Assembly (NCBI RefSeq): GCF_000223395.1
Contig: NC_015931.1
Span: 450,001 to 482,000 of the forward strand
Length of the DNA stretch: 32,000 nucleotides
Direction of reading: 5' to 3'
Source of the DNA: Pyrolobus fumarii 1A
GTDB lineage: Archaea > Thermoproteota > Thermoprotei_A > Sulfolobales > Pyrodictiaceae
Position numbers and translations under genes: made by a program. Below the pieces are notes generated by a model that did no database searches, was not told the origin of the DNA, and was given only the letters and a program-made list of their open reading frames with translations. This document shows positions 1,003 to 23,784 of the stretch, one piece after another (the stretch's first letter is position 1; each line of letters opens with the position of its first letter).

Positions 1003-1488
1003 CTAGAGTGTGATTGGTTTTGGTGGTGTTCTTGTCGTCTTGTCGCATAGGGTCTCCGCCCTGTTTATCCTCTGCTGCTCTTCGTGCGGGATTGGCGTGT
1101 ATATCGTCGTGTATCCTCTCCTAACCGAGTACATGGCTGCTATTATGGAGGCTAGTTTGCGGCCCCCGGTGACGTCTATTATGGCGTGTTTGGCGCCTCT
1201 CGTTGCCTCCTCTAGCTTCTCGAGGAGCTCGTTTATGCCCTCCTCGTCCGTGACGTCGTCAACCCTCAGCGCGTGCACGTGTATCGTGGTGCTTGGCGCT
1301 AGTGGTGGTTTGTCCGTGCCGGGGCATGGGCAGGTCCTGGCTATCTCTATCGCCTCGTGTACTGGTGCCCGCCTAGTCGCCACGATGTGAACCTCTGTGG
1401 GTGTAGCTGCGTTGGCACGTAGCGCGCAGAGCACCGTGTGGAGGACTCCCGGAGACATCCCGAGTAGCACGACGAGCCTTGTGCCCAC
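1003..1488 (-). CDS. Stand-alone CARF-domain protein (Cas_NE0113-like), a possible cyclic-oligoadenylate sensor or ring nuclease
   Basis: The N-terminal LVVLLGMSPGVLHTVLCAL matches the GxSPxV...AL start of CARF/NE0113-type proteins. The motif IIDVTGGRKLASIIAAM matches the CARF D-x-T-G-G-x-K strand-loop-helix. At 161 aa there is no room for an effector domain. Confidence 0.65.
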   Translation of the reverse strand: MGTRLVVLLGMSPGVLHTVLCALRANAATPTEVHIVATRRAPVHEAIEIARTCPCPGTDKPPLAPSTTIHVHALRVDDVTDEEGINELLEKLEEATRGAKHAIIDVTGGRKLASIIAAMYSVRRGYTTIYTPIPHEEQQRINRAETLCDKTTRTPPKPITL

Positions 1489-1569
1489 GGCGCCGCGCCC
1501 CCGTGGTAGCCTTTAGCGCGTCTCGCGCTTGTTGTGCCCTCTGCCGTGGCGTAGTCGCGCTCTAGATTA

Positions 1570-3252
1570 GTGTGGGTGTCTTTCCCCTCCTGCTCGAGGC
1601 GGGGCTCTGGCTGCATGGAGGGTCATGAGCCTCTCCTGCCTCTCTATGCTGGTGTTGGCGTCGCGGCTGTGAGGGTGTTCGGGTGGAGTGTTGGGGCGGA
1701 TGGCGTCCCGGTCTCTTGGGACCCGTTGGAGTGGATGGCTTGGCTCCGTTGGCCCCGCGAGGCTGTGGAGGCGTTCTCGACGCTCTATGGCCGCGTGTCA
1801 AGCGGGTGCGAGCGTGTCTCCCTGGTCTACCTGGACGCGGGGTCTCGCTCGTCGCCAGAGGCCCGCCGGAGCGTCTTCGCCGTGAAGCTCGCGGTGGTGC
1901 ACCGGGTGTCGGTGGGTGGCGTTGTTGAGGAGCGTGTTGTGCACCCGTTGTTGAGGGGTGAGGGTGGGGCGGGGCTCCCTCTGCTCGTGGGCCGCGGGGG
2001 AGACCGGGCGAGGCAGGCTATCACCTACATTGTGGAGCTCGGGGCTGTCTACTCGCTGCTCCGCGGTGGTTGCGTGCTAGTCCTTAAGCACGGGCCTCTC
2101 GCGCAGCAGCTGCAACAGTACCTGCGGCCCAGCTACGACCTTGACGCTGACGTGCTGCACTCTGCGCTCGTATACTCGGGCGTCGAGCGCGACGAGGCTG
2201 ACGCGATTGTGGATGCGGCTAGGGTTGAGGGTGGGATGGTCAACGCCGGTGTGGCTATACTCGAGCTGCTCTCTCGCATAGCGCGTCTAGCCGCGAGCGA
2301 CGGGTCTGTGGCGGTGGCGGGCGTCACTGAGGACGTGACGGGTAGCCGTGTGCTAGCCTCGAGGCTCCTAGCCGAGGCTGCGAGGGCCGCGCTCGACGCG
2401 TATGAGGGCGGTGTGTTGAAGATCGACGGGCTGCGCTCCACAATCGCTCCGAGGATAGCGAGTCTCGTGAGGCTCGGCCGCGCGGCGCTAGACCGTCTGT
2501 GCGGGGACGGGGGGTGCCTATCCAGGTGCCTGGGCCTAGGCGGCATGGATGACCGGGAGCTGCAGGCGTTTACGGTTGGTCTCGTGGAGGCGCTCCACCG
2601 TAGGCTCTTCTACGAGAGGCAGGTGCCGCTAAGGTCGGCTTCCATTGCTGCGCTCGAGGCGGCGGTATACACGGAGGTTGGCAGGCTCCTCGAGACTAGC
2701 GACGCGTCCATAATCCTCGCTGGGCATTGCCTCGCCGGCCCCATAGCCGTGACGAGAGCCTGGCGTAGGGACGCTCTGCTCGAACTCCTAAAGTGGACCG
2801 TGAGCGACGTTAAGCGCGACGTGAAGAAGGAGCTTTTGACTAGCTTCGCAGACGTGTATGCCTATGTCGTGCCGGGGGATCCGCCTACATGCGCGCGGAT
2901 AGAGGAGCTTCTCGAGTCGAGAGGGTTGGCGGGGAGGGTAGACCCGTGGCTCCTCGTTAGGCTCCAGAGGGTCTACCCGCCGGTCCGCGTCGACACCGTC
3001 GCGCCCAGTGGCGAGGAGGAGGGCGTGGCGCTCGAGAAGCTGAGGGGGCTAGCTGCGCTCGTCTACCTGGCCTCCAGCGTATCCCTCCACGGGTACCCGG
3101 CTGGGCTCCTGGTGGCTGATGCCAGGTCTCGTGTGACGCTAGGCGAGGCGTCTATACTCGAGGAGCTTGCGAGGAGGCTCGCAGAAAGGTTACAGCCCTA
3201 CGCGGCCATCCTAAGACACTGGAGGTTGCGACGAGCAACGGTGGTAGACTAG
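1570..3252 (+). CDS. NurA-like nuclease domain protein (long, divergent). The alternative ATG start at 1615 is plausible
   Basis: This 560-aa ORF ends 2 nt before the HerA-like gene. NurA-like landmarks include LVYLDAGSRSS (N-terminal acidic strand), VLVLKHGPL (position of the DGSL-type motif), VAGVTEDVTGSRVL (GVsKxS-like) and the C-terminal HGYPAGLLVADARSRV (YPyxL..AD/H..aR-like). The motif mapping was done by eye only. Confidence 0.5.
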   Translation: MWVSFPSCSRRGSGCMEGHEPLLPLYAGVGVAAVRVFGWSVGADGVPVSWDPLEWMAWLRWPREAVEAFSTLYGRVSSGCERVSLVYLDAGSRSSPEARRSVFAVKLAVVHRVSVGGVVEERVVHPLLRGEGGAGLPLLVGRGGDRARQAITYIVELGAVYSLLRGGCVLVLKHGPLAQQLQQYLRPSYDLDADVLHSALVYSGVERDEADAIVDAARVEGGMVNAGVAILELLSRIARLAASDGSVAVAGVTEDVTGSRVLASRLLAEAARAALDAYEGGVLKIDGLRSTIAPRIASLVRLGRAALDRLCGDGGCLSRCLGLGGMDDRELQAFTVGLVEALHRRLFYERQVPLRSASIAALEAAVYTEVGRLLETSDASIILAGHCLAGPIAVTRAWRRDALLELLKWTVSDVKRDVKKELLTSFADVYAYVVPGDPPTCARIEELLESRGLAGRVDPWLLVRLQRVYPPVRVDTVAPSGEEEGVALEKLRGLAALVYLASSVSLHGYPAGLLVADARSRVTLGEASILEELARRLAERLQPYAAILRHWRLRRATVVD

Positions 3253-3254
3253 CC

Positions 3255-5288
3255 TTGAGCAATGTACAGCCCATGGGCTACATAGTGAGGCTCTCGAGCT
3301 ACGTGGAGGCGGAGGCCGTGGCGCTGACGCCGCTCGAGGAGAGCCTCCAGAGGGGCCAGATAGTAGAGGTGGTTGACCACAGCCAGGGCGGCGCGAGGTA
3401 CCTCGCGGTCATAACGGACGTCTCGGAGACCGAGCCGCACCCCCTCATAGACCCGGAGGCGTTCCAGGCCCTCCTCCGCGAGGCTAGAGCCGAGCACGTT
3501 GATACGACCGAGCTCCTCCGCGCGATGCTCGACCCCACGAGCCCCTTCCGCTTCGCCACAACAGTCCACCTCAGGCTACGCCTCCTAGGCAGGTTGGTGG
3601 GCGACGCACTCGGGGATATCGGCAGGCCGCCTAGACCCAGGTCCACCATCCACCTGCCCGAGGCGGGCCTACTAGAGCAGCTCCTCTGCCCTAACCGCCC
3701 CAGTGTGGTCCCCATAGGGAGGCTCTCGCTGAGGAGCGACGTGAGAGTCTGCATAGACCTCGATAGGCTCAACACGCACATGGCGGTCCTCGGGCAGACG
3801 GGGTCGGGGAAGACGGAGACCGTCAAGAGGCTCGTCTACGAGACTATACGCTCGTGGCTGGCGCGGGGCACCCCACGCCGAGGAGTCATCGTGATGGACG
3901 TCGCAGGGGAGTATACGGGCTACCCCTACCGCCCGCCGAGCGCCACACCCCTCCTCGAGGCCCTGGCGCGCCACGGTATACAGCCGCGCCTCACGATAAT
4001 CGTGCCCTTCGACCCGCTCTACGCGCACCCTGCTCTCGTCGAGGCCGGAGTAGCCGAGCTGGCAGGGAGGCTCTCGAGGCTATACCGTGGAGCCCGCGCG
4101 GCGGGCGTAGTCCTCCACGCGAGGAGCCCGACAGCCACGCTGGTACACCCGCCGCCGCGCACCGAGCTAACCCCCGCCGAGCTCCAAGCCCTCCTCGCCA
4201 CCGCCGAGATGCTCGTAGTGGCGGCGCCGCTGCCCGACACGCTACCCCTGGGCCTCCTCCTCGAGCTCGGCGCGTTCAACGAGGACGCGGAGTACACGGC
4301 TGCCCTACACGAGGCCCTAGAGGAGCTAGAGGAGTATAACATCGTGTCGTCGGTTACGCTGCTAAGCGAGCTGGCTAGGATAGCTGTCGACGCCCGCCCC
4401 CGCAGCAGAGACTTCACATACCCCACGAGCATAGACACAACCTCCATATGCAGCGCCGCCGACGAGGCCCAACTGCTGAACGCGATAAGGTCGCAGCTGT
4501 CCATGGCCATAGGGGCTGACCCTCAGAGCCTAGCCGGTACTAGGCTACAGGAGCCCAGCGTGTGGGTATCGAGGCTGACTGGCGACTACCTCGACCCAAG
4601 CCTAGAGGCCCTGAGGGCGACATGCGCCTCGAGCCCGGGGCGCATACGCGAGAGGCTCTTGGGCGTGGCGCGAGCCGCCTACCGCATAGCGAGGAGCGAC
4701 GTGAGATCCAGGAAGGCGCTCTACAGGAGGCTCTCTAGGATAGCCAGGGTAGCGTCACCCGCCCTCAACCCGCTCGCGGCTAGACTCATAGCCTGGAGGG
4801 TCTACAACGGCTTCACGATACTCCACCTGGCGCCGCCCTCAGTAGGCGGCGTCAACCACCCGCTCGTAACCTGGCTCCTCAACGAGGTGTTCGAGGAGGC
4901 TGTTAGGGGCTACACGCTCGACCAGAGGATGCTCGTTGTCGTAGAGGAGGCTCACAACCTGGCACCGTCACGCGAGGACACCTTCTCCAAGAGGATGTTG
5001 GTCAGGTACGCGAGGGAGGGGAGAAAGTGGGGACTAGGCCTCGTGATAGTCACGCAGAGGCCGGTCGGCGTAGACCCCACCATACTCAGCCAAACAGCCA
5101 CACTAGTAGCACTCCGCATGACAAACCCGGAGGACATCCAGGCGGTGAAAAGCAGCGTCGAGAGCGCCACAGCAGAACTCGTCGAGAGACTACCAGACCT
5201 AGACCGCGGCGAGGCACTAGCCTCGGGCAACGCGCTACCAGAACGCCGCATACCACTCCTAGCCAGGATAGACATGGTCGGCCACTAG
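3255..5288 (+). CDS. HerA/DUF87-type hexameric ATPase (FtsK-HerA superfamily)
   Basis: Walker A is VLGQTGSGKTETVKRL (about 3793-3816). Walker B is MLVVVEEAHNLAP (about 4931-4960), followed by REGRKWGLGLVIVTQRP. The N-terminus looks like a HAS barrel (GYIVRL...GQIVEV...YLAVITDV). The stretch between Walker A and B is unusually long, about 370 aa. The TTG at 3255 or the ATG at 3273 could be the start. Confidence 0.8.
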   Translation: MSNVQPMGYIVRLSSYVEAEAVALTPLEESLQRGQIVEVVDHSQGGARYLAVITDVSETEPHPLIDPEAFQALLREARAEHVDTTELLRAMLDPTSPFRFATTVHLRLRLLGRLVGDALGDIGRPPRPRSTIHLPEAGLLEQLLCPNRPSVVPIGRLSLRSDVRVCIDLDRLNTHMAVLGQTGSGKTETVKRLVYETIRSWLARGTPRRGVIVMDVAGEYTGYPYRPPSATPLLEALARHGIQPRLTIIVPFDPLYAHPALVEAGVAELAGRLSRLYRGARAAGVVLHARSPTATLVHPPPRTELTPAELQALLATAEMLVVAAPLPDTLPLGLLLELGAFNEDAEYTAALHEALEELEEYNIVSSVTLLSELARIAVDARPRSRDFTYPTSIDTTSICSAADEAQLLNAIRSQLSMAIGADPQSLAGTRLQEPSVWVSRLTGDYLDPSLEALRATCASSPGRIRERLLGVARAAYRIARSDVRSRKALYRRLSRIARVASPALNPLAARLIAWRVYNGFTILHLAPPSVGGVNHPLVTWLLNEVFEEAVRGYTLDQRMLVVVEEAHNLAPSREDTFSKRMLVRYAREGRKWGLGLVIVTQRPVGVDPTILSQTATLVALRMTNPEDIQAVKSSVESATAELVERLPDLDRGEALASGNALPERRIPLLARIDMVGH

Positions 5289-5518: not shown

Positions 5519-6694
5519 TCAGGGTTTGTGCCCATGCAGCTTGGCCACGGCTTCCTGGTATACCCTGTGCGGGTCTAGATCGAGGAGAGTCTCTACACCC
5601 TCCCGGTATCCCAGCTCTATCACCGTACGGTAGACTGGGTATTGGGGCTTGTAGCGTATGCCGTCGCGCCCCCGCGGGTACACCGGATAAACTATGTTGT
5701 AGGTTGTGAGTATCTGGCCTAGTGCGTGTAAGTGTGGCTCGCGGAGAGGCGCGATGTCGTTGTTTATGAGTTCGTAGGCTAGTCTTATCACTTCTCGCGG
5801 CTCAAGCTCACGGCGGAAGATCTCCGCGCTTAGCACGTTCCTAGCCCGGCTGAGCCCAGTCTCAACCTCCGCTATCCACATTGGCACACGTTCCTCCACC
5901 ACTGTGTTTCTGTCGAGCATGCACAACTCGGGCAGGTAGCCAGGCGTCCCGCCCACAAGACCCAGCACCTCGTCCACATCTACACCGCAGCTTTTCAAGC
6001 TCACATACTCCTTGTAGAGAGCCCTGAAATGATCGACATCCAGATGCTCGACTAGCATCCATGCCGTGGAGTACCCGTGGAGCTTTGACAAGACGAGGTC
6101 TGTAGCCGTGAAACCCTCGCTTACAGTTAACACTATAGTGATGTTCGAGTAGTGCGGATCCTTTGCTAGTAGGCCTGCGAGAGCCTCCAGGTCGTCAAGA
6201 GCATCGAGGTACTTGCTCGCCGGGTCGCTTTTATGCATGTAGCGGGGCAGCAGGTGGAACTCGTCTATAAAGAGGATTATCCGCGTGGAGGCATACTCGC
6301 GGATAACGTCTATGAGTACATCGATGGCATGGTATGTCAGCTGGAGTAGCCCAGTAGACCTATCGTCGAGGTCTTTGAGAACTTCCAGAAGCCGCTCGGC
6401 TAGATTCTTTTTATCGACTAGTAGACCTCTCGTCTCAAGCGCCCTGACAAGATGCTGACCCCGGAGCCGACGCGCATCCACGTACACGGCTGCTATGCGG
6501 CCACGCTCTTGTAGCCCCCGGAGCCAGTACCGTACGAGCTCGCTCTTCCCGACGCCACGCGGCCCATAGACTATAACCGTCCTATGAGAGAAGACGAGTT
6601 TATCCAGCCTCTCGAGCTCCACGAGCCTATCGTAGAAGGCTGTGCCCAGCCCCGTACGGTAACCCCGATCAACATACACCGCTACCATCTCCAC
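5519..6694 (-). CDS. Archaeal AAA+ ATPase (Arch_ATPase/PF01637-like, with a C-terminal DUF234-type winged helix)
   Basis: The N-terminus reads FYDRLVELERLDKLV...VIVYGPRGVGKSELV (Walker A). ILFIDEFHLL is Walker B. The length of 391 aa is typical of the family. Confidence 0.8.
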   Translation of the reverse strand: MEMVAVYVDRGYRTGLGTAFYDRLVELERLDKLVFSHRTVIVYGPRGVGKSELVRYWLRGLQERGRIAAVYVDARRLRGQHLVRALETRGLLVDKKNLAERLLEVLKDLDDRSTGLLQLTYHAIDVLIDVIREYASTRIILFIDEFHLLPRYMHKSDPASKYLDALDDLEALAGLLAKDPHYSNITIVLTVSEGFTATDLVLSKLHGYSTAWMLVEHLDVDHFRALYKEYVSLKSCGVDVDEVLGLVGGTPGYLPELCMLDRNTVVEERVPMWIAEVETGLSRARNVLSAEIFRRELEPREVIRLAYELINNDIAPLREPHLHALGQILTTYNIVYPVYPRGRDGIRYKPQYPVYRTVIELGYREGVETLLDLDPHRVYQEAVAKLHGHKP

Positions 6695-6850: not shown

Positions 6851-7006
6851 CTACCTGAGATAGACTCGAGCTATACCACGAGAGTGGACGACAACCCTTC
6901 CCTCTAGGTGGTCATCCCTCAGCCTCACAGCGTGCTCAGAGTACGCCTCGGGGATAACCCACTTTATGATCACACTCGCATCGGCTACAACAGGCTTAGC
7001 GCGCAT
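6851..7006 (-). pseudogene. vapC: Truncated VapC-like PIN toxin (only about 51 codons remain)
   Basis: My own translation of the minus strand gives MRAKPVVADASVIIKWVIPEAYSEHAVRLRDDHLEGRVVVHSRGIARVYLR*. The ATG overlaps the VapB stop (gatgcgcgctaa). VVADASVII is the first PIN acidic motif. Intact VapC proteins are about 130 aa, and the rest of the domain is missing or frameshifted. Confidence 0.45.
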
Positions 7007-7220
7007 CCCTATCCTCCCTTACAAACTCGGCAGCAAGGTTGCCCTCCACCCGGCCTATACTCCGCCGGAGCCTCTCCATCTCATCTCTAAGCCTACGCGC
7101 CTTCTCCCTCCTGACAAGCTCCTCTAGGAACTCCCTAACAGCCGCAGAGTAGTTTATACCGAGCCTCTCCAGCTCCTCCTTAAGCCTCCTTGGCACCCTC
7201 ACACTAATGACGACACTCAC
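6996..7220 (-). CDS. vapB: Ribbon-helix-helix (CopG/VapB-like) antitoxin
   Basis: MSVVISVRVPRRLKEELERLGINYSAAVREFLEELV is a typical RHH N-terminus. The protein is 74 aa and is translationally coupled to the downstream PIN remnant. Confidence 0.7.
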   Translation of the reverse strand: MSVVISVRVPRRLKEELERLGINYSAAVREFLEELVRREKARRLRDEMERLRRSIGRVEGNLAAEFVREDRDAR

Positions 7221-7452
7221 ACGTCAACACCCACGTATACACGCACTGTAAACAGTAAAACGCTTACCTCGCAGCAGGTCGCCACGCCACTCCAAGAGCC
7301 TCAGAGGCCACGGAGTCTCGTCCTACAAGGCAGGGCGGCAATTGCCGCTCGCTGCCCACGGAGGAGTGTGCGCTGCCAGCCGGTTCTCTTCGACACGAAT
7401 ACCTTCCTAGGCCAAGGCGCTACCTGACCGGATGTCCGCCTGGTTCCCCCGG

Positions 7453-8988
7453 CTAGCTCGTATGCTTCCGCGTCTTGATCTTGAACTTCTCGAGGTGTAT
7501 GCCTATAGTCTGCCAGGCGTTGGTGCCTCTTAGCATACCGCGCGTCTTCTCGGCTAGGCACGCTACGTGGAGTAGGGCGTATGCTGCTCTAGCGGCTCTC
7601 GCCCTAACGTCTATCTCGTCCCATCTCCACGGCTCGAGGCTTTGCCTGGCGGAGAGCACTCTCGTTATCTTGGAGGAGGGGTGGCTCCGCCATAGCGTGT
7701 ATGCCCCGGTGTCCTCGGTTACCAGTGTATACTTCTCGAGTATCAGGGGATCCATTCTTATCATCGCTGTGTCGGCTGGCGGCGGGTCGCTTGGCAGCAC
7801 AGGGGTCGTGGCCTGAAGCTCTCGTAGTAGCACGCCGGCTACTATCCTGCGTAGCACCTTCTCGGGGTCTCGGAGCCCAGCGTTCCTCTTGAGAGCCTCG
7901 GCTAGGCTCCTCTCTATCTCTGCCACGACGGCCCACGGTAGGGCTATGGATGCGCCCATTAGAGCCTCTATGTGCACCCCCTTGTAGACTAGGTTGGCGT
8001 CTACCAGCAGCCTATCACCCAGCGTGTAGAGCAGTGCCTCTCCGCGTCCATCCTCGCTCCCGGCTAGCCACCAGTAGAGGCCAGACGCCTCTGCGAGGGC
8101 GCGCACAACGAGGCCTGGTATCCCCTTGTCGCTCGAGGCTAGCTTCCCGGCATCCTCTGCCGCCTTCACCCAGCTCTCGGGTTTGCACCAGTCGTCCACG
8201 GTTATCTCTCCGAGGGGCGTCTCCAAGCTGAGCACGCACGGCGTACACTCGGCCCTGTCATAATCGTACCTGGCGGTGCCGCTGCACTCGATGTTCACCT
8301 GGAGGGCCTTGACGGCTATGCATGCGCGTAGGCTACCAGCCTCTACACCCACAGACTCTAGCAGCTCCCTCACCCTCAGCTTCCTCAACCATTTTGGCGC
8401 CTCGCGCCCCCTGGGAGGCTCCCACACCGGGTGTATGACGTAGAGGGGCTCGAGGGGCCTGGGTACGAGCGGGTAGGGTAGCCCAGTCCAAGGCCCCCAC
8501 CAGAAGTCCAGGTGGACCACGTTCGCCTCCGAGCCCTCGACGGACCCCGGCGTTACGCTCGCCAACGCGAGGGCAGCCGCGAGCCTCCTAGACCCGGGCG
8601 AGGTGCAGGACACTACACGCGGGAACCTGGCCGCGAGGTACTCTACAAGCCTCCTAGCAGCTCTCTCCAGGATACCGGGCGCGTCGCTAACCTCCACAAT
8701 AACGCCGGGGATGGCCACACCGGCATCGCTAACCACGCGCAGCGCACGCTCAGAGTCCGGCCTCGTCCTCGGAGTCGCCAGCACAACTACACCATCAACG
8801 CCATACTCCTCCGCCAGTCTCAGTATACACGAGATGAAGGAGAGCCTTGACTCCCTACCGACACACCCAGCCGCAACAGCCACAACACTAGCCCCACCCA
8901 ACACCGAGCCGATCACAGCCTCCGCGTCGCGCGGCAATCTCCCAGTCTCAACACCATCGAGGCTAGACACTCTAACTACACTCGCCAA
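7453..8988 (-). CDS. 511-aa protein with an N-terminal CARF-like Rossmann domain and a C-terminal PIN-like nuclease domain
   Basis: The N-terminal layout parallels the CARF at 1003-1488: VVAVAAGC..SFISCILRL..VVVLATPRT...EVSDAPGILERAARRLVEYLAARFPRVVSCTSPGSRRLAAALALA versus LVVLLGMSPGV...DDVTDEEGINELLEKLEEAT..AIIDVTGGRKLASIIAAM. The C-terminus carries PIN-type acidic residues in order: LLVDANLVYKG, AVVAEIERS, PADTAMIRMD, LVTEDTGA. The start is a TTG at 8988. Confidence 0.5.
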   Translation of the reverse strand: MASVVRVSSLDGVETGRLPRDAEAVIGSVLGGASVVAVAAGCVGRESRLSFISCILRLAEEYGVDGVVVLATPRTRPDSERALRVVSDAGVAIPGVIVEVSDAPGILERAARRLVEYLAARFPRVVSCTSPGSRRLAAALALASVTPGSVEGSEANVVHLDFWWGPWTGLPYPLVPRPLEPLYVIHPVWEPPRGREAPKWLRKLRVRELLESVGVEAGSLRACIAVKALQVNIECSGTARYDYDRAECTPCVLSLETPLGEITVDDWCKPESWVKAAEDAGKLASSDKGIPGLVVRALAEASGLYWWLAGSEDGRGEALLYTLGDRLLVDANLVYKGVHIEALMGASIALPWAVVAEIERSLAEALKRNAGLRDPEKVLRRIVAGVLLRELQATTPVLPSDPPPADTAMIRMDPLILEKYTLVTEDTGAYTLWRSHPSSKITRVLSARQSLEPWRWDEIDVRARAARAAYALLHVACLAEKTRGMLRGTNAWQTIGIHLEKFKIKTRKHTS

Positions 8989-9351: not shown

Positions 9352-10443
9352 TCAATGCCGTGCACCTACTAGCTTCTCTACTGCTCTCGTTATTCTCGGG
9401 TTGTTCTTTGCGAGCCTCTTTAGCATGTTTATTGTGTCCTGGGCTGCGAGTCTTGCGGCTTCTAGCGTGACGTGTAGGTTGTGGAGGGCTAGTGCTTTGG
9501 TGTCCCACCTCATCTCGTCAAGCGTGTCGAAGCGGGTGCAGGCGGGGCACGTGCAGTACTCGGAGGGTTTCAGCCTGGAGCCCCTCGCCTCTATCCGGGC
9601 TGGTAGCCTCCCGGCGAGGTAGTGCTCGGGTGGCGTGTACCAGAGTCTCTTGGCGGCAGCTATTATGAAGGTCTTCGAGTCCATCGAGTCGCCTCCAGCC
9701 GCGTACAATAGCGGTATGTTGACTGGGGAGGCGACGCCGAGGACGTGGAGCCACGCGCCCCGGGGCAGCGCGCTCCTCGCCTCTAGTAGCCTCTCGGTGA
9801 TGTAGGCTGGGTTTCCGCGGTGCGGCACCAGCCCGCCGACCGCGAATCCGTCCACCTCGTCGAGTCTTAGCCCCGCCCTCTCGCGCAGCTCGACCGCGAG
9901 CATCTCGAGGAGGGCTCGTAGCTCGCTGGCGTCGCGGTAGTGGAGGACTATGAGCAGCTTCATGCTCCTCCTCGTCCTCAGCTGGTAGGCCAACGCCGCG
10001 TTCCTAGCCGTAACCCTCAGCCTGTTGAGGACCTCCCCGTCCATCGCGCCGTGGAGGGGGTAGTCCAGGGTGAAGGCATAGTCCGCCCCGAAGCCCTCCT
10101 GCCTCCGGAGTATAGCCTCCACGAGCTCCTCCCCGGGCTCACCCGGGCTCCTCGGCCCCCTCCCCGCCCCATGCCTCCCGGCCAGGAGCCTCGTCTTGTC
10201 CCGGATGTAGAGGAATCCGCCCGAGTCAACCCACGCAGTGACGCTGGGGTCGAGGTGGGTATCCTTACGGTGGTGTGGGCGGAGAAAGTAAGCGTTGACC
10301 ATCGCGTGGTGGTGGCCCAGGCCCTCGGGGGGCGGGCGCCAGTAGGGCGGCGTGTTGCCACCCGCACCGAGGTTATGCACCGGGACTATCACGGGCCTTA
10401 CACTTCCCACCAAGAGTATCCCGAGGAGGCGCCGCGAGCCCAA
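9352..10443 (-). CDS. Short tRNA-guanine transglycosylase (TGT) superfamily protein lacking C-terminal PUA-type domains (arcTGT catalytic-domain-only or DpdA-like)
   Basis: TGT landmarks appear in order: VIVPV..., MVNAYFL, WVDSGGFLY (the DSGGF catalytic Asp motif), FTLDYP, AVGGLVP, LHVLGVASPVNIPLLYAAGGDSMDSKTFI, and the zinc motif CTCPAC...(about 20 aa)...LHNLH. At 363 aa it is shorter than typical archaeosine TGTs. The start is uncertain (TTG at 10443 or the GTG a few codons in). Confidence 0.7.
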   Translation of the reverse strand: MGSRRLLGILLVGSVRPVIVPVHNLGAGGNTPPYWRPPPEGLGHHHAMVNAYFLRPHHRKDTHLDPSVTAWVDSGGFLYIRDKTRLLAGRHGAGRGPRSPGEPGEELVEAILRRQEGFGADYAFTLDYPLHGAMDGEVLNRLRVTARNAALAYQLRTRRSMKLLIVLHYRDASELRALLEMLAVELRERAGLRLDEVDGFAVGGLVPHRGNPAYITERLLEARSALPRGAWLHVLGVASPVNIPLLYAAGGDSMDSKTFIIAAAKRLWYTPPEHYLAGRLPARIEARGSRLKPSEYCTCPACTRFDTLDEMRWDTKALALHNLHVTLEAARLAAQDTINMLKRLAKNNPRITRAVEKLVGARH

Positions 10444-11091: not shown

Positions 11092-14000
11092 CTTTCAATT
11101 CATTCTTGGTTGTTTCGCAATACTACGTGGTGAAGAGGTGCCGCCAGAGTCAGGCATTGACCTTTCAATTCATTCTTGGTTGTTTCGAGAGCATGACGTG
11201 TGTGTCACAACCGGCAAGAAGGGCGTGTGTATCTTTCAATTCATTCTTGGTTGTTTCCAGCGCCTGCTCCTAGGCCGTGACCGTGACGAGGAGACGGTCT
11301 ATGTCACCCTTTCAATTCATTCTTGGTTGTTTCGGGTGTGGTAGCCGAACGATAGCCTGGCTAGTGATAGTGTGTACTTTCAATTCATTCTTGGTTGTTT
11401 CCCAAACTTGCCACCAATGCCTCAGCCAACACCAAAACCGTAAGCTTTCAATTCATTCTTGGTTGTTTCTCCCCGCGATTGTCGATACGCCGGGTGTCGT
11501 TACCGTTGGCTTTCAATTCATTCTTGGTTGTTTCCTGTGTCCGCGCCCGGGGACACCCCTCCCTCAGCATGTGCTCCTTTCAATTCATTCTTGGTTGTTT
11601 CCCCTTGTAGCGAGCCACGGCCAACACACCAACCCGATGCTAGTTCTTTCAATTCATTCTTGGTTGTTTCACCGCTCTACGCCACCCCCTACCTGAACGT
11701 CACGACCGGCTTTCAATTCATTCTTGGTTGTTTCACAAAACGCGCGATATATAGACGCGCGCGGCTATAATATAATATAACGCGACTTTCAATTCATTCT
11801 TGGTTGTTTCCTCGATAGCTCTACGAATCGCCTCTGAGCGATTTATTCCACGCTTTCAATTCATTCTTGGTTGTTTCACGGATACGTCTCGCACAGACGT
11901 ACCTCTATCGTCACTTTATCTTTTCTTTCAATTCATTCTTGGTTGTTTCGAAACCCTCTTGACGGGAATGTGGCAGGGCAAGTGGAACTTTCAATTCATT
12001 CTTGGTTGTTTCCTACCAACGTGCTGGTGGCCGCAGCCAGCCTAGCCCCGGACATCCTTTCAATTCATTCTTGGTTGTTTCGGCGCTGCTGGAAGCCGTG
12101 GTGGAGTCTATACCGGTGCTGGACCTTTCAATTCATTCTTGGTTGTTTCTACCCGACTGCCAGGGGAGTACACGTTTACGCCACTAGCGAGTCACCATGG
12201 GTCTTTCAATTCATTCTTGGTTGTTTCGCTGCTGCAGCCTTTATTGCACAGAACGGCTCGTAGCTTACCTTTCAATTCATTCTTGGTTGTTTCCTCGAGA
12301 GCCTCTATGAGAGCGTTAGAGGCACTAGCAAGCTCACAGTGCTTTCAATTCATTCTTGGTTGTTTCTCCAATTGCCAGGATCCTCGAGAAGGAGTTAGGT
12401 GAAGTAGCCACTTTCAATTCATTCTTGGTTGTTTCCTAGGAGTTGAAGGGTTCGAAGGCTGAGGCTGGGATGATACTTTCAATTCATTCTTGGTTGTTTC
12501 CTCGTAGGCGAGGTGTACCGCTGGCGTGCCCATCGCCATTGCCTCCTTTCAATTCATTCTTGGTTGTTTCGTAGGGGGTTGCGGGTACGCTGCATGGTTG
12601 ACGAGCCGCTGGGCTTTCAATTCATTCTTGGTTGTTTCCCGAGCCCGAAGGAGCTTGGCGCGCGCGTCTTCAAGGGCGACTTTCAATTCATTCTTGGTTG
12701 TTTCCGATGGCAACGAGGTTGACGTGCACTTCGACCACCTGGCGCACTTTCAATTCATTCTTGGTTGTTTCGCGTTGGAGAGGCTGCTGGAGGAGCGGAG
12801 GGTTGACGCGAGCTTTCAATTCATTCTTGGTTGTTTCGCGTAGACCTTCAGCAGCGCCCCCCTGCTGGCCGCCTTGCCCAGCTTTCAATTCATTCTTGGT
12901 TGTTTCCAGTAGCATGCCGCTATACTACGAAGTGTTCGTGAAGTGCCTTTCAATTCATTCTTGGTTGTTTCACGCAGTGTAACCCGGGAGAGTACGCGTT
13001 CAACGTGTCAGGTCAGCTTTCAATTCATTCTTGGTTGTTTCATCATGGACTTCTTCAACCGCGTGAGCGTCGTTGAGCATACTTTCAATTCATTCTTGGT
13101 TGTTTCCGGGGTACGTGGTCACAACCGCATCACCGTGTGTGCAGCGAACCTTTCAATTCATTCTTGGTTGTTTCAAACCAGCGCCGTGCCTCGGAAACGG
13201 TGATTATGTAGAAATAGCCTTTCAATTCATTCTTGGTTGTTTCCTACGAATAGCATAGGCGGGCACCGTATCTACCTACCCGAGTATGGCTTTCAATTCA
13301 TTCTTGGTTGTTTCGCAACCCGGCCTAGCTGTAGCCATGCTTGTATGCTTCGCCATATACCTTTCAATTCATTCTTGGTTGTTTCAATAGCTCCACTACT
13401 TGGTCAACGGCGTACCCCATCCACTTCTTTCAATTCATTCTTGGTTGTTTCAGGCGAAGCCCGACGAGGTTGCCGCCGAGATATCTGGTATCCCTTTCAA
13501 TTCATTCTTGGTTGTTTCTAGGATAGAGACGGTGAAGGGCAACGGGGCGTTCTTCGAGACTAGTGCTTTCAATTCATTCTTGGTTGTTTCTGATTCTCCC
13601 ACCCGGCTGAGCGGTGATGACGGCAGCCTCCACTCTTTCAATTCATTCTTGGTTGTTTCAGGGCAGTAGGATTAGCGCCAGGAGTGGCGCGAGGGTTATC
13701 AAAAACTTTCAATTCATTCTTGGTTGTTTCTACCGACGAGCAGACGGCTACGCCGCGCACCCAGCGAGAGGCTATCGACTTTCAATTCATTCTTGGTTGT
13801 TTCTCCGCGCGCGAGATCCATCTCTCCCGCCCCCGCGCTTCGGGTAGCTTTCAATTCATTCTTGGTTGTTTCTCGCTCGAGGAGGTGAGGAGGCTGGCCC
13901 AGGAGGGTAGCTTTCAATTCATTCTTGGTTGTTTCGTCGCGTAGTATACGCGCCGCGGTGAGCACCCCGAGCTGCTCCTTTCAATTCATTCTTGGTTGTT

Positions 14001-16549
14001 TCCTGGCCGTGGCCCCTCTCGCAATCGGCCTCAGCTTCCTCCCTTTCAATTCATTCTTGGTTGTTTCGGAGAAGATGGCGGTCTCAGGGCCGCCGCCCGC
14101 GAGGCGGTCCCACTTTCAATTCATTCTTGGTTGTTTCATAGGGGGTCGTCTGGCAACACGACCTTCGAGATAACGTTCAACGTGACGAGCTTTCAATTCA
14201 TTCTTGGTTGTTTCCATCGAGGCTCTGGACTACCTCGCCGAGATGATAGACTATAGGGCTTTCAATTCATTCTTGGTTGTTTCGCCAGGCCCGAGGCGGT
14301 GAGGTTTGACAACGTGGAGAGGAACGGACTTTCAATTCATTCTTGGTTGTTTCACCTTGGCGTCCGGCAGTGGCGGGGCCGACGGCCCCACCAGGCCCCG
14401 CCTTTCAATTCATTCTTGGTTGTTTCGGATTGTTCTAGCATCTGCTCCGAACCCAAATCATAATTCGCTTTCAATTCATTCTTGGTTGTTTCCGTGGCAT
14501 AGTGATAGTGGCAACGCATACTGACATATTCCACGTCGGTCCTTTCAATTCATTCTTGGTTGTTTCTACGGCAGGAGCGCCGAGCAGGTTGAGCTCGCGA
14601 GCCTACTTTCAATTCATTCTTGGTTGTTTCTCTAGCTCTACGCTCACGTTGAGGGGCACGGCTCTCACCCCCTTTCAATTCATTCTTGGTTGTTTCCATG
14701 GGCGCGGTTGAGACCTTCGAGGACAGGATAGCCTCGACTTTCAATTCATTCTTGGTTGTTTCTCTATGGTGGATGGCGAGGACGGCGACATCTGGTACGA
14801 GCTTTCAATTCATTCTTGGTTGTTTCCCGTGTCCTGGTCACCAACCAGCTCCTAGCCCCGGGCGTGCGCGTGCAGCTCTTCGTACTTTCAATTCATTCTT
14901 GGTTGTTTCACGAGGTGAGAGACTTCACAGAGATAGCCCGCATAGTAGCAAAAACGCCTTTCAATTCATTCTTGGTTGTTTCTGGAACCGCCGCCACCGT
15001 TGGCCTGACGCTATTCGTGATTGCTTTCAATTCATTCTTGGTTGTTTCTCCGGATCCCCGCACCGCGTATAGAGGGTATGCGCGGGGGTATAACTTTCAA
15101 TTCATTCTTGGTTGTTTCACATGGAGGAGCCAAGGCTCATAACCGCGATACGCGAGAATGCTTTCAATTCATTCTTGGTTGTTTCCAGAAGTCTTACGAC
15201 GGATACTAGTGGTGCAAATAATGCTTTCAATTCATTCTTGGTTGTTTCACTACACGACCCTGCAAATTCCCATCGTGTCATAGTGTCATACTTTCAATTC
15301 ATTCTTGGTTGTTTCGCGGTCTGGAGCCCGGTGCACGGATCTACATCTACGATGTCTTTCAATTCATTCTTGGTTGTTTCCTGGCCGCCGCACTTGGCGT
15401 TGAGGGTGTGGAGGCAAGCGCTTTCAATTCATTCTTGGTTGTTTCACGAGGCAGTGTGTTAGTGACGATAGGCCGGTGTGTAGCGAGACTTTCAATTCAT
15501 TCTTGGTTGTTTCTTAACAGCGTACTTCAGCGCTTCGCGGACGCCAACGCGTACCTTTCAATTCATTCTTGGTTGTTTCCGCGTTGGTCTTGTAGCTCTC
15601 TGCGCCGGCGTCCACGCGGGAGTCGCTTTCAATTCATTCTTGGTTGTTTCCCCGCATGGGTCTACCCCTCTCCCGAGATGCGCAAGGTAGCGACCCTTTC
15701 AATTCATTCTTGGTTGTTTCGTAGCTCTCGATCCACCCGCGGAACACAGGGTCGGCATGCTTTCAATTCATTCTTGGTTGTTTCCAGCCTCACTAGAATC
15801 TCGTATATCTCGCGGGCTTGTTGTATCTTTCAATTCATTCTTGGTTGTTTCGCTCGGTGTTCAAGTCGGTGGTCTACGACCGTTGCGGGTGCGTCCAGAC
15901 TTTCAATTCATTCTTGGTTGTTTCAGTGATATGCTAGTCGGTGATTTATGGTGATAATAAACGTGCTACTTTCAATTCATTCTTGGTTGTTTCGTACTGA
16001 AAAGTGTTGGTCTACTTGATAAGCTAAGAATGTATCTTTCAATTCATTCTTGGTTGTTTCAATACAAAACAATCAAGATATTGACGGGCCTGCCTTTAGT
16101 AAATGTAACTTTCAATTCATTCTTGGTTGTTTCTTGTAATGCGGGGTGAGGGCATGAAACTGAGAGAATTAGTACTTTCAATTCATTCTTGGTTGTTTCG
16201 ACGTCGTAATGCAGATCATGACGCGGTGGTTGCTAACGCCACTCTTTCAATTCATTCTTGGTTGTTTCTGCGGATAGAGGAGGGGAGGATAACGTTTCCG
16301 ATCGGGGTGCTTTCAATTCATTCTTGGTTGTTTCAAAACGATCCGTGTCGAGTCCGGCCTCGCGATAATCAAGGTACTTTCAATTCATTCTTGGTTGTTT
16401 CAGCGTCACGTCCCAGCTTCTCCTGCCGTAGGCGGTGTACGCTGGTTGGTCTGGACTTTCAATTCATTCTTGGTTGTTTCTCGCTAGGAAGGGCCGCGAG
16501 TGGGTGGCTGCCGTGAGTTATGGGCTTTCAATTCATTCTTGGTTGTTTC
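11092..16549 (-). CRISPR. CRISPR array 1: 80 repeats and 79 spacers, transcribed from the minus strand with the leader at the right end
   Basis: The 25-bp repeat CTTTCAATTCATTCTTGGTTGTTTC (plus strand) was located by hand at 80 positions from 11092 to 16525. Spacers are 38-58 bp. Orientation is set by the ATTGAAAG 3' end of the reverse-complement repeat and by the conserved leader at 16550-16858. The repeats look identical on inspection. Confidence 0.98.
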
Positions 16550-16584
16550 TGCATTCTTGCCGTGTGGTTATAGGGTCTCTCTTC

Positions 16585-16591: not shown

Positions 16592-16661
16592 TCTTTTCTC
16601 TGTTGTCTTTGTTTCTGTGATTTGAGTGTAGTCGTGCCGGGCACAGATGGCCGTGGGGTAT

Positions 16662-16678
16662 GGTCCGCGGGTAGTACC
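16662..16678 (-). promoter_or_regulatory. Leader box GGTACTACC-N3-GGACC (proximal copy, array 1)
   Basis: The plus strand reads ggtccgcgggtagtacc. The box lies 112 bp from the first repeat, exactly as at 23698-23714. Confidence 0.5.
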
Positions 16679-16761
16679 GAGTTTATAAGCCGGGCAAGGG
16701 TTAAATACCGGATTACAGCGGTCGGGAGTACCTCACATCCACCCATGGAACCGTGAGCGAC

Positions 16762-16778
16762 GGTCCACCGGTAGTACC
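16762..16778 (-). promoter_or_regulatory. Leader box GGTACTACC-N3-GGACC (distal copy, array 1)
   Basis: The plus strand reads ggtccaccggtagtacc, exactly 100 bp from the proximal copy. Confidence 0.5.
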
Positions 16779-16854
16779 AGGGGTTAAAAGGATTACGCTG
16801 AGTGGTAGAAAAAGTTTTTCGTAGAGATGTGGTTTATGCTTTTCGGCTCTTGGC

Positions 16855-17479: not shown

Positions 17480-18670
17480 CTAGGCGCCTGGGATGCCCCT
17501 GCCGATCGCCTCGCGTAGCCACGTGGGGCCCGCCGCGCCGGTTAGGGACGCGAGCGCCGCCAACGCGACGCGGTTAGCTGGCGCGATGCTGTCTAGCGCG
17601 CCGCACGGCCCGCCGCCCCCGCACTCCCCTACCCCCTCCTCCACCTCTACCCTCGTATCCACCTCCCCACACTCCCTATTCCACTCGTAAACCCCTAGGT
17701 ACTCGCCACACCCCAGCTGGAGCACGTTCAGCCTGGTCAGGTGTTTTAGTAGCGAGTGGTGCTCGGGTGGCAGCGAGTAAGCCTCCTCGAGGGGCATGGG
17801 GCCCTCCACGAGGCGCATGAGCACGTCCCGCGCCTCGCCCCGCCGTGCAGCGGCCAGCGCCTCTAGCACGGCGCGCTTGTATGCTCTCAGCCTCCTGCGG
17901 TAAGCCGCCCTAGGCGAGCTGGACGCGAGCACCTCCTGGATCAACGCGGGGTGCCCGCCAACCACGTCTAGAAGCTCGTCATGCTCCCTCGCGTTGAGGG
18001 CCTCGGCTAGGCTCCTGGCGTCGACGCGCGTCATCTCGCCGAGGTAGAAGGTGTCGAGGTAGTCCACGCCGGGGGCCTCCCGGTACAGCGTCTCGTATAG
18101 CCCGTAGTCGCTGGTGACCAGGAGGGCGCGGAAGGAGTAAGGGTGCTGCTCTTGTAGCGTGGCGAGCAGCTTCACAAAGCTCCACACGTGGAGCCCTAGG
18201 CCCGTGATGAGGTTCTGCGCCTCGTCTATAACGAGGACGAGCTTCACACCCTCCCTCTCACACCTCTCGACGGCGGCGGACAGGGCGTCACCGATGACCT
18301 CCAGTGGCGTCCTAGGGGGCGCCACCCTACCCAGATCGACACCCATCTTCTCGCGCAGGATCGAGGCCACAGCCTCCACAAGAGCCCTCCTAGCGAGGCC
18401 GCCGACACCCTCCAGGCTAGACACGAGCCTCCCAGCCAACAGCCTAACGTCGCGCACCGGCTCGAGAAGCTGGAGGTATACCACCAGGTACGCCCGGGGG
18501 TCTAGACGCTCGCGGAGACTAGACGCCAGGGTAGACTTCCCGATGCCACTGGGCCCCACGAGCACCGTGACGAGCCGCGAGCCCCTCTCTTCGACAAGCT
18601 CCTCCAGCCTCCGCAGCTCAACCTCCCTACCAACAATCCTCAACCAGCCGCAACCCCCGGCGCGGTACAC
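17480..18670 (-). CDS. Archaeal AAA+ ATPase (Arch_ATPase/PF01637-like), the second copy in the window
   Basis: The N-terminus reads IVGREVELRRLEELVEE..LVTVLVGPSGIGKSTL (Walker A). LVLVIDEAQNL is Walker B. The length is 396 aa. Confidence 0.8.
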   Translation of the reverse strand: MYRAGGCGWLRIVGREVELRRLEELVEERGSRLVTVLVGPSGIGKSTLASSLRERLDPRAYLVVYLQLLEPVRDVRLLAGRLVSSLEGVGGLARRALVEAVASILREKMGVDLGRVAPPRTPLEVIGDALSAAVERCEREGVKLVLVIDEAQNLITGLGLHVWSFVKLLATLQEQHPYSFRALLVTSDYGLYETLYREAPGVDYLDTFYLGEMTRVDARSLAEALNAREHDELLDVVGGHPALIQEVLASSSPRAAYRRRLRAYKRAVLEALAAARRGEARDVLMRLVEGPMPLEEAYSLPPEHHSLLKHLTRLNVLQLGCGEYLGVYEWNRECGEVDTRVEVEEGVGECGGGGPCGALDSIAPANRVALAALASLTGAAGPTWLREAIGRGIPGA

Positions 18671-20787: not shown

Positions 20788-21807
20788 CTACCTCACCGCC
20801 TCGCGGAACGGCGCGTACATGGAGCCGCTGCGCACCGCCTGCGCGAGGAGCCTAGCGTGCCTCGCCATGTGCCTCTCTAGGGTGTCGCTCTTGCCCGTCG
20901 CCCCGTCCCTCACAACCCTCTCCCTCACCCACCTCGCGTACTCCGCTACCAGCCTCGAGCGCGTCTCCGCATCCATGAGGCCGGTTTGCGGGTCTCTCAC
21001 CGGCCTCCATCCGCCCGCGAGCAGCTTGTAGGCCAGGCGGTCGACTGCCGAGACCCTGAAGAGTTCCGCGAAGTCGTATACTAGGGTTGGGCGCCCGCTC
21101 CTATCCGCGTGGATGAAGCCCACGTAGGGGTCCAGCCCGTACATGACGAGGTAGCGGTGTACCCACGCGTAGAGGAGCGCGTAGAGGTAGTTGAGGATCG
21201 TGTTCATCGGGTCTGGGGAGTCGTGGTTCCTCCCCTGGAACCCCACGTCGCCCGGCAGGAGGGCGGCGAGCGCACCCCAGTACCTCCTCGCGGCGTGCGC
21301 CTCCAGCACACGCAGCCTATCGACGCTATCCTCGCCCAGAGCCCTCCTGGCGTACTCCTCGATCCTCTCGGCCTCGTCTCGAAGCCAGGCCTCGCCCCTC
21401 TCGAGCGCCAGGCTCCGGAGGAACCCAGCCTGGTTGAGCATCTTCCCGTAGACTATGCTCTTGGCCACCGCGAGCCTCGAGGAGGGGTCCGTAGCGGCCC
21501 TATACTGGGCTATCCTCGTCTCGCTCGTCCTGCTCACCCACGGGGGTGTGAGGGTAACCACCGGGTTGCCACGGGCGTCTAGGAACAGGATGTCTATCCC
21601 GAGCCTCGCCAGCCTCCTCACCGCCGAGCTCGTAATACTCACCTGCGACGTGACTATCACGATGCGGTCTACCTCCGCGATAGGCACGACGCTCCGGCTC
21701 CTACCCCCGCCATCCACAGACTCGACCACTATCGCCCCGCGGTGCACGCGCAGCCTGGCGCCCCTAGCGGAGACCACCAGCACCCGGGGAGCCCCGTCTC
21801 CTCCCAA
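20788..21807 (-). CDS. cas1: Cas1 integrase
   Basis: Cas1 motifs are present: LEAHAARRYW, MNTILNYLYALLY, GFIHADRSGRPTLVYDFAELFR. The length is 339 aa. Confidence 0.95.
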   Translation of the reverse strand: MGGDGAPRVLVVSARGARLRVHRGAIVVESVDGGGRSRSVVPIAEVDRIVIVTSQVSITSSAVRRLARLGIDILFLDARGNPVVTLTPPWVSRTSETRIAQYRAATDPSSRLAVAKSIVYGKMLNQAGFLRSLALERGEAWLRDEAERIEEYARRALGEDSVDRLRVLEAHAARRYWGALAALLPGDVGFQGRNHDSPDPMNTILNYLYALLYAWVHRYLVMYGLDPYVGFIHADRSGRPTLVYDFAELFRVSAVDRLAYKLLAGGWRPVRDPQTGLMDAETRSRLVAEYARWVRERVVRDGATGKSDTLERHMARHARLLAQAVRSGSMYAPFREAVR

Positions 21808-23542: not shown

Positions 23543-23597
23543 GCCAAGCCCTCACGAAATCCTTTTTCCACCCTTCAGCGTAACGCTTCTAACCCCT

Positions 23598-23614
23598 GGT
23601 ACTACCGGTGGACC
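23598..23614 (+). promoter_or_regulatory. Leader box GGTACTACC-N3-GGACC (distal copy, array 2)
   Basis: The box reads ggtactaccggtggacc, embedded in taacccctggtactaccggtggaccgt. Confidence 0.5.
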
Positions 23615-23697
23615 GTTGCCTATGGGACTATGACTGGTTGAGAGTAGCACAAGACCGCTGTAAACTCATACTTAAGCTTTTCTCTGCTTATAAACCC

Positions 23698-23714
23698 GGT
23701 ACTACCGCTGGACC
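23698..23714 (+). promoter_or_regulatory. Leader box GGTACTACC-N3-GGACC (proximal copy, array 2)
   Basis: The box reads ggtactaccgctggacc, embedded in taaacccggtactaccgctggaccgt. It is 100 bp from the distal copy and 112 bp from repeat 1. Confidence 0.5.
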
Positions 23715-23784
23715 GTCCCGCAAGGGCACCGTTGAAGCCCATTACACCTCCCCAACCACAGAAACAAAGACAACAGAGAAAAAG

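Follow-up and report, generated by a model that had tools for sequence, protein, structure and literature searches.

A gene on the minus strand of Pyrolobus fumarii 1A, at positions 9352-10443 of the stretch analysed here (32,000 nucleotides, positions 450,001 to 482,000 of contig NC_015931.1; hereafter the window), encodes a short protein with the fold of tRNA-guanine transglycosylases (TGTs), and related genes recur beside type III CRISPR-Cas, CARF and HerA genes. TGT-fold enzymes modify tRNA (queuosine, archaeosine) and, in the case of DpdA, bacterial and phage DNA. The interpretation that we favour, with a probability of about 0.5, is that this TGT-like protein would be an active guanine/7-deazaguanine transglycosylase working as a defence accessory, with DNA as its favoured substrate. 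Taken separately, a defence-linked role for the gene is rather probable, and the assignment of DNA as the substrate is tentative. The new result is the recurrent gene context with type III CRISPR, CARF and HerA, of which no earlier description was found in the literature searched.

The annotated start of the gene lies at 10410, 11 codons downstream of the TTG codon that opens the reading frame, and gives 352 amino acids; the NCBI entry 'hypothetical protein [Pyrolobus fumarii]' of that length is 100% identical to the TGT-like protein. In the family alignment, conservation among homologs starts at RPVIVPVHNLGAGGN, and both the TTG and the annotated start are therefore compatible with it. Judged from its sequence and that of its homologs, this is a real, conserved gene that looks intact yet is very divergent. 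A preliminary description, made from the DNA alone, had reported a full set of TGT landmarks, and every motif that it named was located at the residue level: DSGGF (73-77), LDYP (126-129), GGLVP (203-207), GVASP (236-240), GGDSMDS (250-256), CTCPAC (297-302) and H321.

The only Pfam family matched at E ≤ 0.01 was TGT (PF01702; 47.6 bits against a gathering cut-off of 26.3, E = 1.7e-12). A profile built from 25 homologs matched the archaeosine TGT (arcTGT) of P. horikoshii (PDB 1iq8) with E = 3.4e-16, the DpdA structure 7ui4 with E = 3.8e-6 and human QTRT1 with E = 2.6e-5. An AlphaFold2 (AF2) model built from the homolog alignment (pLDDT 88.6, pTM 0.89) consists of eight barrel strands, a zinc subdomain (CxCxxC...H) and a C-terminal helical hairpin with nothing further, which bears out the catalytic-domain-only architecture proposed earlier: no C1, C2 or PUA domain follows, and the protein ends at the equivalent of arcTGT residue ~351. 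The best PDB match of this model in Foldseek was again 1iq8 (E = 2.5e-12, TM 0.72), with eukaryotic and bacterial TGTs next in rank; the top matches were all TGTs, and DpdA was absent from the top 50. These profile and model matches place the protein in the TGT superfamily far beyond chance, with arcTGT as its best match by both measures.

The protein shares with arcTGT 1iq8 the (beta/alpha)8 barrel, two catalytic aspartates, an Asp/Gln guanine-recognition pair, GG(L/V)VP and CxCxxC...H. Alignment to a haloarchaeal arcTGT by hhalign (probability 98.9, E = 1e-17, 26% identity) paired D73 with the general acid/base Asp, D255 with the nucleophile Asp, and D127 and H168 with the guanine-recognising Asp and Gln (arcTGT Gln169); GGLVP fell on GAMVP and the Cys/His cluster on the zinc site. 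Five residues (D73, D127, G203, D255 and H321) do not vary among the 25 homologs; position 168 holds Q in 16 of them and H in 9, and CxCxxC is retained in 22. This pattern is what would be expected of an active transglycosylase.

The three members without the zinc cysteines (P0018, P0019 from locus L014, and P0025) still have H321 and both catalytic aspartates; the L014 copy is the one encoded in the TGT-X-HerA-Crn1 operon.

Membership of named families was then assessed with curated models. On the NCBI TgtA model (TIGR00432) the TGT-like protein scored 45.5 bits against a cut-off of 350 and other family members 49-77 bits, whereas the N-terminal subunit of a genuine split-type arcTGT (P0028, 494 amino acids) scored 587 bits. 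The general TGT superfamily model (tgt_general) gave 37.9 bits against 47.6, and the model of ArcS (archaeosine synthase alpha) 25.5 bits against 440, in a protein with no PUA domain. The DpdA model (NF041059) gave 16.1 bits against 200 (E = 0.0038), and PADLOC DpdA (PDLC02807; 16.8 bits, E = 5.8e-4) was the sole PADLOC match; none of the PADLOC type III accessory or CARF models (C3a/CARF) matched, nor did Pfam DUF6610/DpdA4 (PF20314), the archaeal virus transglycosylase (PMC10516641). A canonical or split arcTGT is ruled out by the TgtA score and the missing C1/C2/PUA domains, and membership of DpdA by the model scores, the weaker 7ui4 match and the Foldseek ranking. Thus, of the preliminary description's suggestion of a short TGT paralog in a defence locus, different from a normal arcTGT and possibly DpdA-like, the first part stands but DpdA-family membership does not.

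Other differences from arcTGT lie in sequence identity (~19-26%), in the insertion HNLGAGGNTPxYW after strand 1, in the family-specific Lys257 and Tyr169, and in gene location, since arcTGT is a conserved housekeeping gene and the TGT-like gene sits in CRISPR/defence loci. Split arcTGTs likewise have a catalytic part separated from the PUA-bearing C-terminus, but their N-terminal subunits are of ~490 amino acids, retain C1 and score as TgtA; the clustering with such subunits that the preliminary description had named, together with the lack of any other TGT homologue in the genome, as grounds for abandoning its idea is absent. It had also attributed split arcTGTs to Crenarchaeota, wrongly for those named in PMC4770233 (H. 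volcanii, M. barkeri and M. acetivorans), which are all Euryarchaeota. No PUA gene adjoins the TGT-like gene in the window or in the related loci examined, no Pyrodictiaceae entry was found among the named representative arcTGT clusters, and the literature yielded nothing specific on an arcTGT of P. fumarii.

A word-indexed protein search returned only 28 homologs, from Pyrolobus and Pyrodictium delaneyi where named and otherwise from vent metagenomes and metagenome-assembled genomes (MAGs), and a metagenome scan for further loci gave only duplicates of known ones. When 1.84 billion representatives were searched exhaustively with the profile, 631 matched at E ≤ 1e-3, but only 7 of them at E ≤ 1e-30. 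Ranking below the core family were other short (313-386 amino acids) archaeal TGT-like proteins (P0029, 298 bits; P0030, 250 bits; a Bathyarchaeia cluster, 155 bits), with canonical arcTGTs of 500-650 amino acids at ≤ 80 bits. Ten short representatives (P0029-P0043) were scanned with the curated models and all remained below the cut-offs (TgtA 57-194 bits, DpdA ≤ 41 bits). In a neighbour-joining tree, a rough one made from one MAFFT alignment with corrected p-distances, the TGT-like family forms one monophyletic group, sister to P0029 and P0030, and is nested in ~50 short-only sequences with the long arcTGTs outside. The insertion PVHN[LIW]GAGGNTPxYW after strand 1 is common to the family, P0029 and P0030; P0031, P0032 and haloarchaeal plasmid proteins have variants of it, and canonical arcTGTs have PVVNP at this site. 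The window protein thus belongs to a small clade, mostly from Pyrodictiaceae, among short archaeal TGT-like proteins.

A viral origin was considered and rejected: tblastn gave no match in 50,697 phage records and none in IMG/VR, and a BFVD search gave only remote fold matches, rudivirus TGT-like proteins among them.

Fourteen distinct loci carrying the gene could be compared (Table 1). In 10 of them it lies within ~5 kb of cas genes, CARF genes, a CRISPR array or a gene pair formed by HerA and a protein that we call X, and in three of these 10 it is an immediate neighbour of X-HerA. Taking the chance of such a neighbourhood for a random gene as 5-15%, the binomial probability of 10/14 would be 8e-11 to 3e-6, a calculation that assumes independent loci and, the genomes being related, overstates significance. 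Simple inherited synteny is countered by the varying gene order and orientation and by the survival of the link at ~35% identity: the outgroup P0030 (34-39% identity), from whose 90%-identity cluster one member bears the source name 'MAG: Thermoprotei archaeon', is also found in such a locus (L018). The link to defence genes proposed on the window alone is therefore stronger than the window showed. There, the gene does lie between the PIN-fusion gene and the CRISPR array as first described: a same-strand CARF-PIN gene is found 364 bp downstream, array 1 begins 650 bp upstream, and the Crn1-like, X and HerA genes are 4 kb away. Neither dpdB (ParB-like ATPase) nor dpdC nor preQ0 synthesis genes were found in the 14 loci, in agreement with their reported absence from the window, where they were missing among the larger ORFs.

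Crn1-like CARF, X (~513-560 amino acids) and HerA/DUF87 form a recurring module, seen at 1003-5288 of the window and in other TGT loci: X homologs adjoin HerA in L011, L012, L014, L016, L017 and L018, and Crn1-like homologs flank X-HerA in L011, L012 and L014. In the window the Crn1-like gene is divergent from X-HerA, and HerA scores 99-117 bits on NCBIfam HerA models, each time below the cut-off. Protein X has no match in Pfam, NCBIfam or PADLOC; its profile against PDB gave noise only, HMMER found no NurA match, and a single-sequence AF2 model was unusable (pLDDT 35). The conserved motifs are, in order, VDAGSRS, RQAxxYxxELA, KHGPL and YGYPPQLLVVDxxSRV. Judged by its place upstream of HerA and by the sequence in which conserved acidic motifs follow one another, protein X is possibly a NurA-like nuclease. 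X-HerA probably corresponds to the HerA/NurA pair described as a 'co-evolved' type III accessory in crenarchaea (clusters 57/58; Shah et al. 2018, PMC6546367); like that pair, it occurs in crenarchaeal type III/CARF loci, here by the TGT-like gene, but the equation of protein X with NurA is what we infer.

More distant relatives came from plasmids. A tblastn search of PLSDB returned matches on haloarchaeal megaplasmids (27-29% identity, 85-94% query coverage, E down to ~1e-15), as well as on Nostoc plasmids. In Halorientalis, Halobaculum and Haloferax they belong to a conserved block encoding a 967-amino acid DpdA, a 344-amino acid short TGT, a 298-amino acid hypothetical protein and a BrxD-like ATPase, which adjoins queD and, in Halorientalis, also queC, folE and queE. 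On the DpdA model the 967-amino acid protein, which serves as a positive control, scores 275.8 bits and exceeds the cut-off of 200, whereas the short TGT fails it (34.4 bits; TgtA 134.8 bits). By hhalign the short TGT resembles the window family (probability 99.5, E = 2e-22, 33% identity) more closely than the haloarchaeal arcTGT does, and its best match among the collected loci is the outgroup P0030. Short TGTs of this type therefore do occur in evident 7-deazaguanine DNA-modification islands, as a second transglycosylase next to DpdA. A DpdA-like function is still plausible for the TGT-like protein because these related plasmid TGTs adjoin a true DpdA and preQ0 genes.

The plasmid block resembles an archaeal Dpd-like island with two transglycosylases, and on the Haloferax alexandrinus plasmid a Csa3 gene is found near it.

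Under the favoured interpretation, Asp255 would attack C1' of guanosine, guanine would depart and a 7-deazaguanine would take its place, for example preQ0 drawn from the archaeosine pathway of the host; Asp73 would serve as general acid/base in the exchange. The host is expected to provide preQ0, which archaea make for archaeosine (PMC5485725; a general statement, not specific to P. fumarii). The exchange would most likely take place in a nucleic acid other than at tRNA position 15, and the enzyme might either mark self DNA or work with the X-HerA motor/nuclease. We predict an accessory of archaeal defence loci and not a housekeeping tRNA-G15 enzyme because (i) tRNA-docking domains are missing, (ii) the gene lies in defence loci, (iii) it is coupled to HerA in one locus and (iv) plasmid relatives sit by DpdA. 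DpdA requires an ATPase partner to act on DNA. This requirement, and the fact that HerA-type motors and their nuclease partners likewise have DNA as their target, make DNA the favoured substrate.

Several observations weigh against this interpretation. The nearest solved relative is a tRNA enzyme, arcTGT, and not DpdA; no Thermoprotei member has dpdB, dpdC or preQ0 genes nearby; the protein carries no sensor domain; and the phage records and IMG/VR hold no homolog. Furthermore, three or four loci (L007-L009, L015 and L001) have housekeeping contexts without defence genes, and all loci come from one narrow lineage, so that their contexts are not fully independent.

An RNA-modifying role is kept alive by these housekeeping loci (loci 12-14) and by the closer similarity to arcTGT. 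The protein might be a housekeeping RNA modifier of Pyrodictiaceae, either a diverged stand-in for arcTGT or a tRNA/rRNA 7-deazaguanine enzyme acting at a second site, and the CRISPR adjacency would then be synteny inherited along the margins of cas super-loci that are large and fluid. We consider this unlikely, though the most probable of the alternatives: the closest structures and profiles are those of arcTGT, the set of guanine-binding and catalytic residues is complete, the gene in L007-L009 lies by ribosomal protein, SPOUT RNA methyltransferase and IleRS genes, and the core family is limited to organisms growing at ≥ ~100 °C. Moreover, Thermoplasma has a multisite arcTGT, and arcTGT is active without its PUA domain (both PMC4770233). 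However, a real split subunit scores 587 bits on the TgtA model where this protein scores 45, 10 of the 14 contexts are defence-linked in varied arrangements that include a translationally coupled HerA-TGT junction (L016), the link holds to ~35% identity in a MAG named 'Thermoprotei archaeon', and relatives lie beside DpdA on haloarchaeal plasmids. If the target is tRNA or rRNA after all, the protein would represent a new modification enzyme, one that only the most heat-tolerant archaea possess.

Quite unlikely is a base-excision effector, which would employ TGT chemistry to take guanine, or a 7-deazaguanine of viral origin, out of the nucleic acid of invader or host; the abasic or covalent lesions left behind would be processed by X-HerA or would halt the cell in the course of a type III response. 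Such a role is consistent with the gene linkage to a motor ATPase and putative nuclease (L014, L016 and L017), with donor-base synthesis genes found in no Thermoprotei locus, and with CARF-PIN, Csx1 and Crn1 neighbours, which are parts of abortive or dormancy-type signalling. On the other hand, the protein has no CARF or other sensor domain, the residues of the incoming-base pocket of exchange enzymes are conserved, and copies that stand alone among housekeeping genes would be dangerous if the enzyme were toxic. A paralog that is catalytically inert or has been repurposed, perhaps as a regulator that binds nucleic acids or bases, is very improbable: the family is highly divergent and some members have lost the zinc cysteines, but the catalytic aspartates and base-recognition residues are invariant in the family and the outgroups, as under purifying selection on catalysis.

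That the protein is a true DpdA, serving as modification subunit in a 7-deazaguanine restriction-modification system of the Dpd type, can practically be set aside in spite of the weak PADLOC and NCBIfam matches, the short single-domain architecture and the defence-island location, given 16 bits against 200, a 7ui4 match weaker than that of arcTGT, the absence of DpdA from the top 50 in Foldseek, the lack of homologs of dpdB, dpdC and dpdD-K, and a true DpdA encoded as a separate gene by the short TGT in haloarchaeal islands. What the protein has in common with DpdA (S. enterica 7ui4; phage DpdA1-4) is a TGT fold without tRNA-binding domains, a defence or mobile context, a plausible 7-deazaguanine donor and a related short TGT that adjoins true DpdA; it differs in its model scores, in the absence of DpdB/DpdC partners and of a DUF6610 match, and in its neighbours, which are type III cas, CARF and X-HerA genes in place of dpdD-K.

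A more elaborate form of the defence interpretation, which is speculative and rather unlikely, would make short TGT, X, HerA and Crn1-like CARF an unrecognised DNA-marking archaeal defence module on type III CRISPR-Cas. The TGT would draw 7-deazaguanine from the precursors that the host makes for archaeosine and write it into the DNA of the cell, and the X-HerA motor/nuclease, tied by CARF to cyclic-oligoadenylate signalling, would destroy unmarked invader DNA. Were this true, it would be, as far as found, without precedent on two counts: as a chromosomally encoded system for deazaguanine in the DNA of a hyperthermophilic archaeon, and as a connection of base exchange with CRISPR signalling.

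If the favoured interpretation holds, base-exchange chemistry would reach into CRISPR-associated immunity by way of a third clade, archaeal and catalytic-only, that accompanies type III CRISPR, CARF and HerA modules, and the long-unexplained HerA/NurA-type accessory pair would gain a testable function. A mark on DNA would predict 7-deazaguanine DNA in organisms growing above 100 °C, with a bearing on DNA stability, restriction and sequencing tools for such genomes. Nothing relevant to a CRISPR-associated TGT was found in the literature, the coverage of which was incomplete; the words 'transglycosylase' and 'TGT' are absent from Shah et al. (2018) and from the FLSHclust survey (Altae-Tran et al. 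2023, PMC10910872).

Table 1. Features of the window and gene order around the TGT-like gene in the compared loci (window features: window coordinates; L and P numbers: collected loci and proteins)
Feature or locus	Position	Strand	Details
TGT-like gene, catalytic domain only	9352-10443	-	TTG start at 10443, 363 amino acids
CARF-PIN fusion, predicted cyclic-oligoadenylate-sensing RNase	7453-8988	-	PADLOC CARF_m3--CARF_PIN, E 4.7e-190, 630 bits
Crn1-like small CARF (ring-nuclease family)	1003-1488	-	cas_Crn1 E 1.1e-12, 48 bits against cut-off 125
Protein X, 560 amino acids	1570-3252	+	directly upstream of HerA
HerA/DUF87-type hexameric ATPase	3255-5288	+	Pfam DUF87 61.7 bits, HerA_C 35.8 bits
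Archaeal ATPase_2/AAA_16 (STAND-like) ATPase	5519-6694	-	Pfam ATPase_2 72.1 bits; between HerA and CARF-PIN
CRISPR array 1	11092-16558		~80 copies of 25-nt repeat CTTTCAATTCATTCTTGGTTGTTTC
Cas1	20788-21807	-	Pfam Cas_Cas1 241 bits; type I-A locus flanking arrays
Csa1	21823-22692	-	Pfam Csa1 234 bits; type I-A locus flanking arrays
Csa3-like CARF-HTH gene	22868-23542
CRISPR array 2	23827-25977	+	~32 repeats, array 1 repeat in opposite orientation
Locus 1, window			Crn1-like CARF, X, HerA, ATPase_2, RHH + PIN fragment, CARF-PIN, TGT-like, array 1
Locus 2, P. delaneyi			array, Cas6, TGT, PIN, Csx1, Cmr cassette
Locus 3, L010			GajA/AriA-like ABC ATPase, TGT, two small genes, Cas10-HD type III cassette; TGT upstream, same strand
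Locus 4, L013			TGT, 155-amino acid gene, Cas10-HD type III cassette; TGT upstream, same strand
Locus 5, L011			TGT, Crn1-like CARF, X, HerA
Locus 6, L012/L004			array, Crn1-like, X, HerA, Csx1, Cas_APE2256 CARF, TGT, array
Locus 7, L014			radical SAM gene, TGT, X, HerA, Crn1-like in one direction; then Cmr3
Locus 8, L016			pAgo, X, HerA, TGT; 4-nt HerA/TGT overlap
Locus 9, L017			TGT divergent from X-HerA
Locus 10, L018 (outgroup P0030), part 1			pAgo, Cas4, Cas6, X-homolog, HerA, CARF, TGT
Locus 10, L018, part 2			AAA_15/21 fragments, 64-repeat array, two further CARF genes, RAMPs
Locus 11, L003			short contig; ABC ATPase as in L010
Locus 12, L001			reverse gyrase, nitrilase-family gene, TGT, PIN, ATPase
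Locus 13, L015			nitrilase-family gene, PAPS-reductase-like gene, TGT, AMP phosphorylase
Locus 14, L007-L009			ribosomal-protein operon with SPOUT methyltransferase, TGT, CxxCxxCC protein, IleRS
Plasmid block, L022, Halorientalis litorea plasmid NZ_CP095485.1	2516-12034		also L023, L025

Genes of other kinds also adjoin the TGT-like gene in related loci. Nitrilase-superfamily (CN_hydrolase) genes do so in two diverged lineages, in L001 (3475-4404) and L015 (6366-7214), their products being 43-45% identical, and in L015 a gene for a PAPS-reductase-like PP-loop protein (7439-8650) lies directly upstream. As preQ0 is a nitrile, a role of the nitrilase-family neighbour in preQ0 processing is conceivable. 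The radical SAM gene upstream in L014, considered as a preQ0 gene, proved to be MoaA-like and not QueE. Piwi-domain (prokaryotic Argonaute, pAgo) genes are found within a few kb of X-HerA-TGT in L016 (730-3063) and L018 (1-1084). ABC-type AAA_15/AAA_21 ATPase genes, with PD-T4-4_A, AriA and GajA as best PADLOC matches, stand directly beside the TGT-like gene in L003 (1648-3144) and L010 (8230-9678), where they are divergent, and in L018 (11092-12112), where they are downstream and apparently fragmented. In L007 (2470-6704), from the MAGs with a housekeeping context for the TGT-like gene, two unannotated genes for proteins of 1089 and 280 amino acids lie between L22 and L23 of the ribosomal-protein cluster.

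The window ORF of protein X has an 80-amino acid N-terminal extension that is missing in its homologs. A word-indexed protein search recovered no full-length copy of it, and a search with a six-sequence X alignment returned only a 307-amino acid identical fragment of window X from a Logan assembly; the window gene may be unannotated or differently annotated in the public record. Paralogous ATPase_2/AAA_16 genes (5519-6694 and 17480-18670) flank the region, and a similar ATPase is encoded near the TGT-like gene in L001 (7091-8056). At 6851-7220 a 74-amino acid ribbon-helix-helix (RHH; CopG/VapB-like) ORF is followed by a 51-amino acid ORF resembling the N-terminal fragment of a PIN toxin, and the two may be a decayed VapBC pair. 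Because the reverse-complement repeat has a ATTGAAAG 3' end, array 1 is probably transcribed on the minus strand, which would place the TGT-like gene at its trailer end. The two arrays surround the Cas1/Csa1 adaptation genes in opposite orientation, and their presumed leaders, near 16650-16780 and 23595-23716, have in common an inverted copy of CCGGTACTACCG.TGGACCGT.

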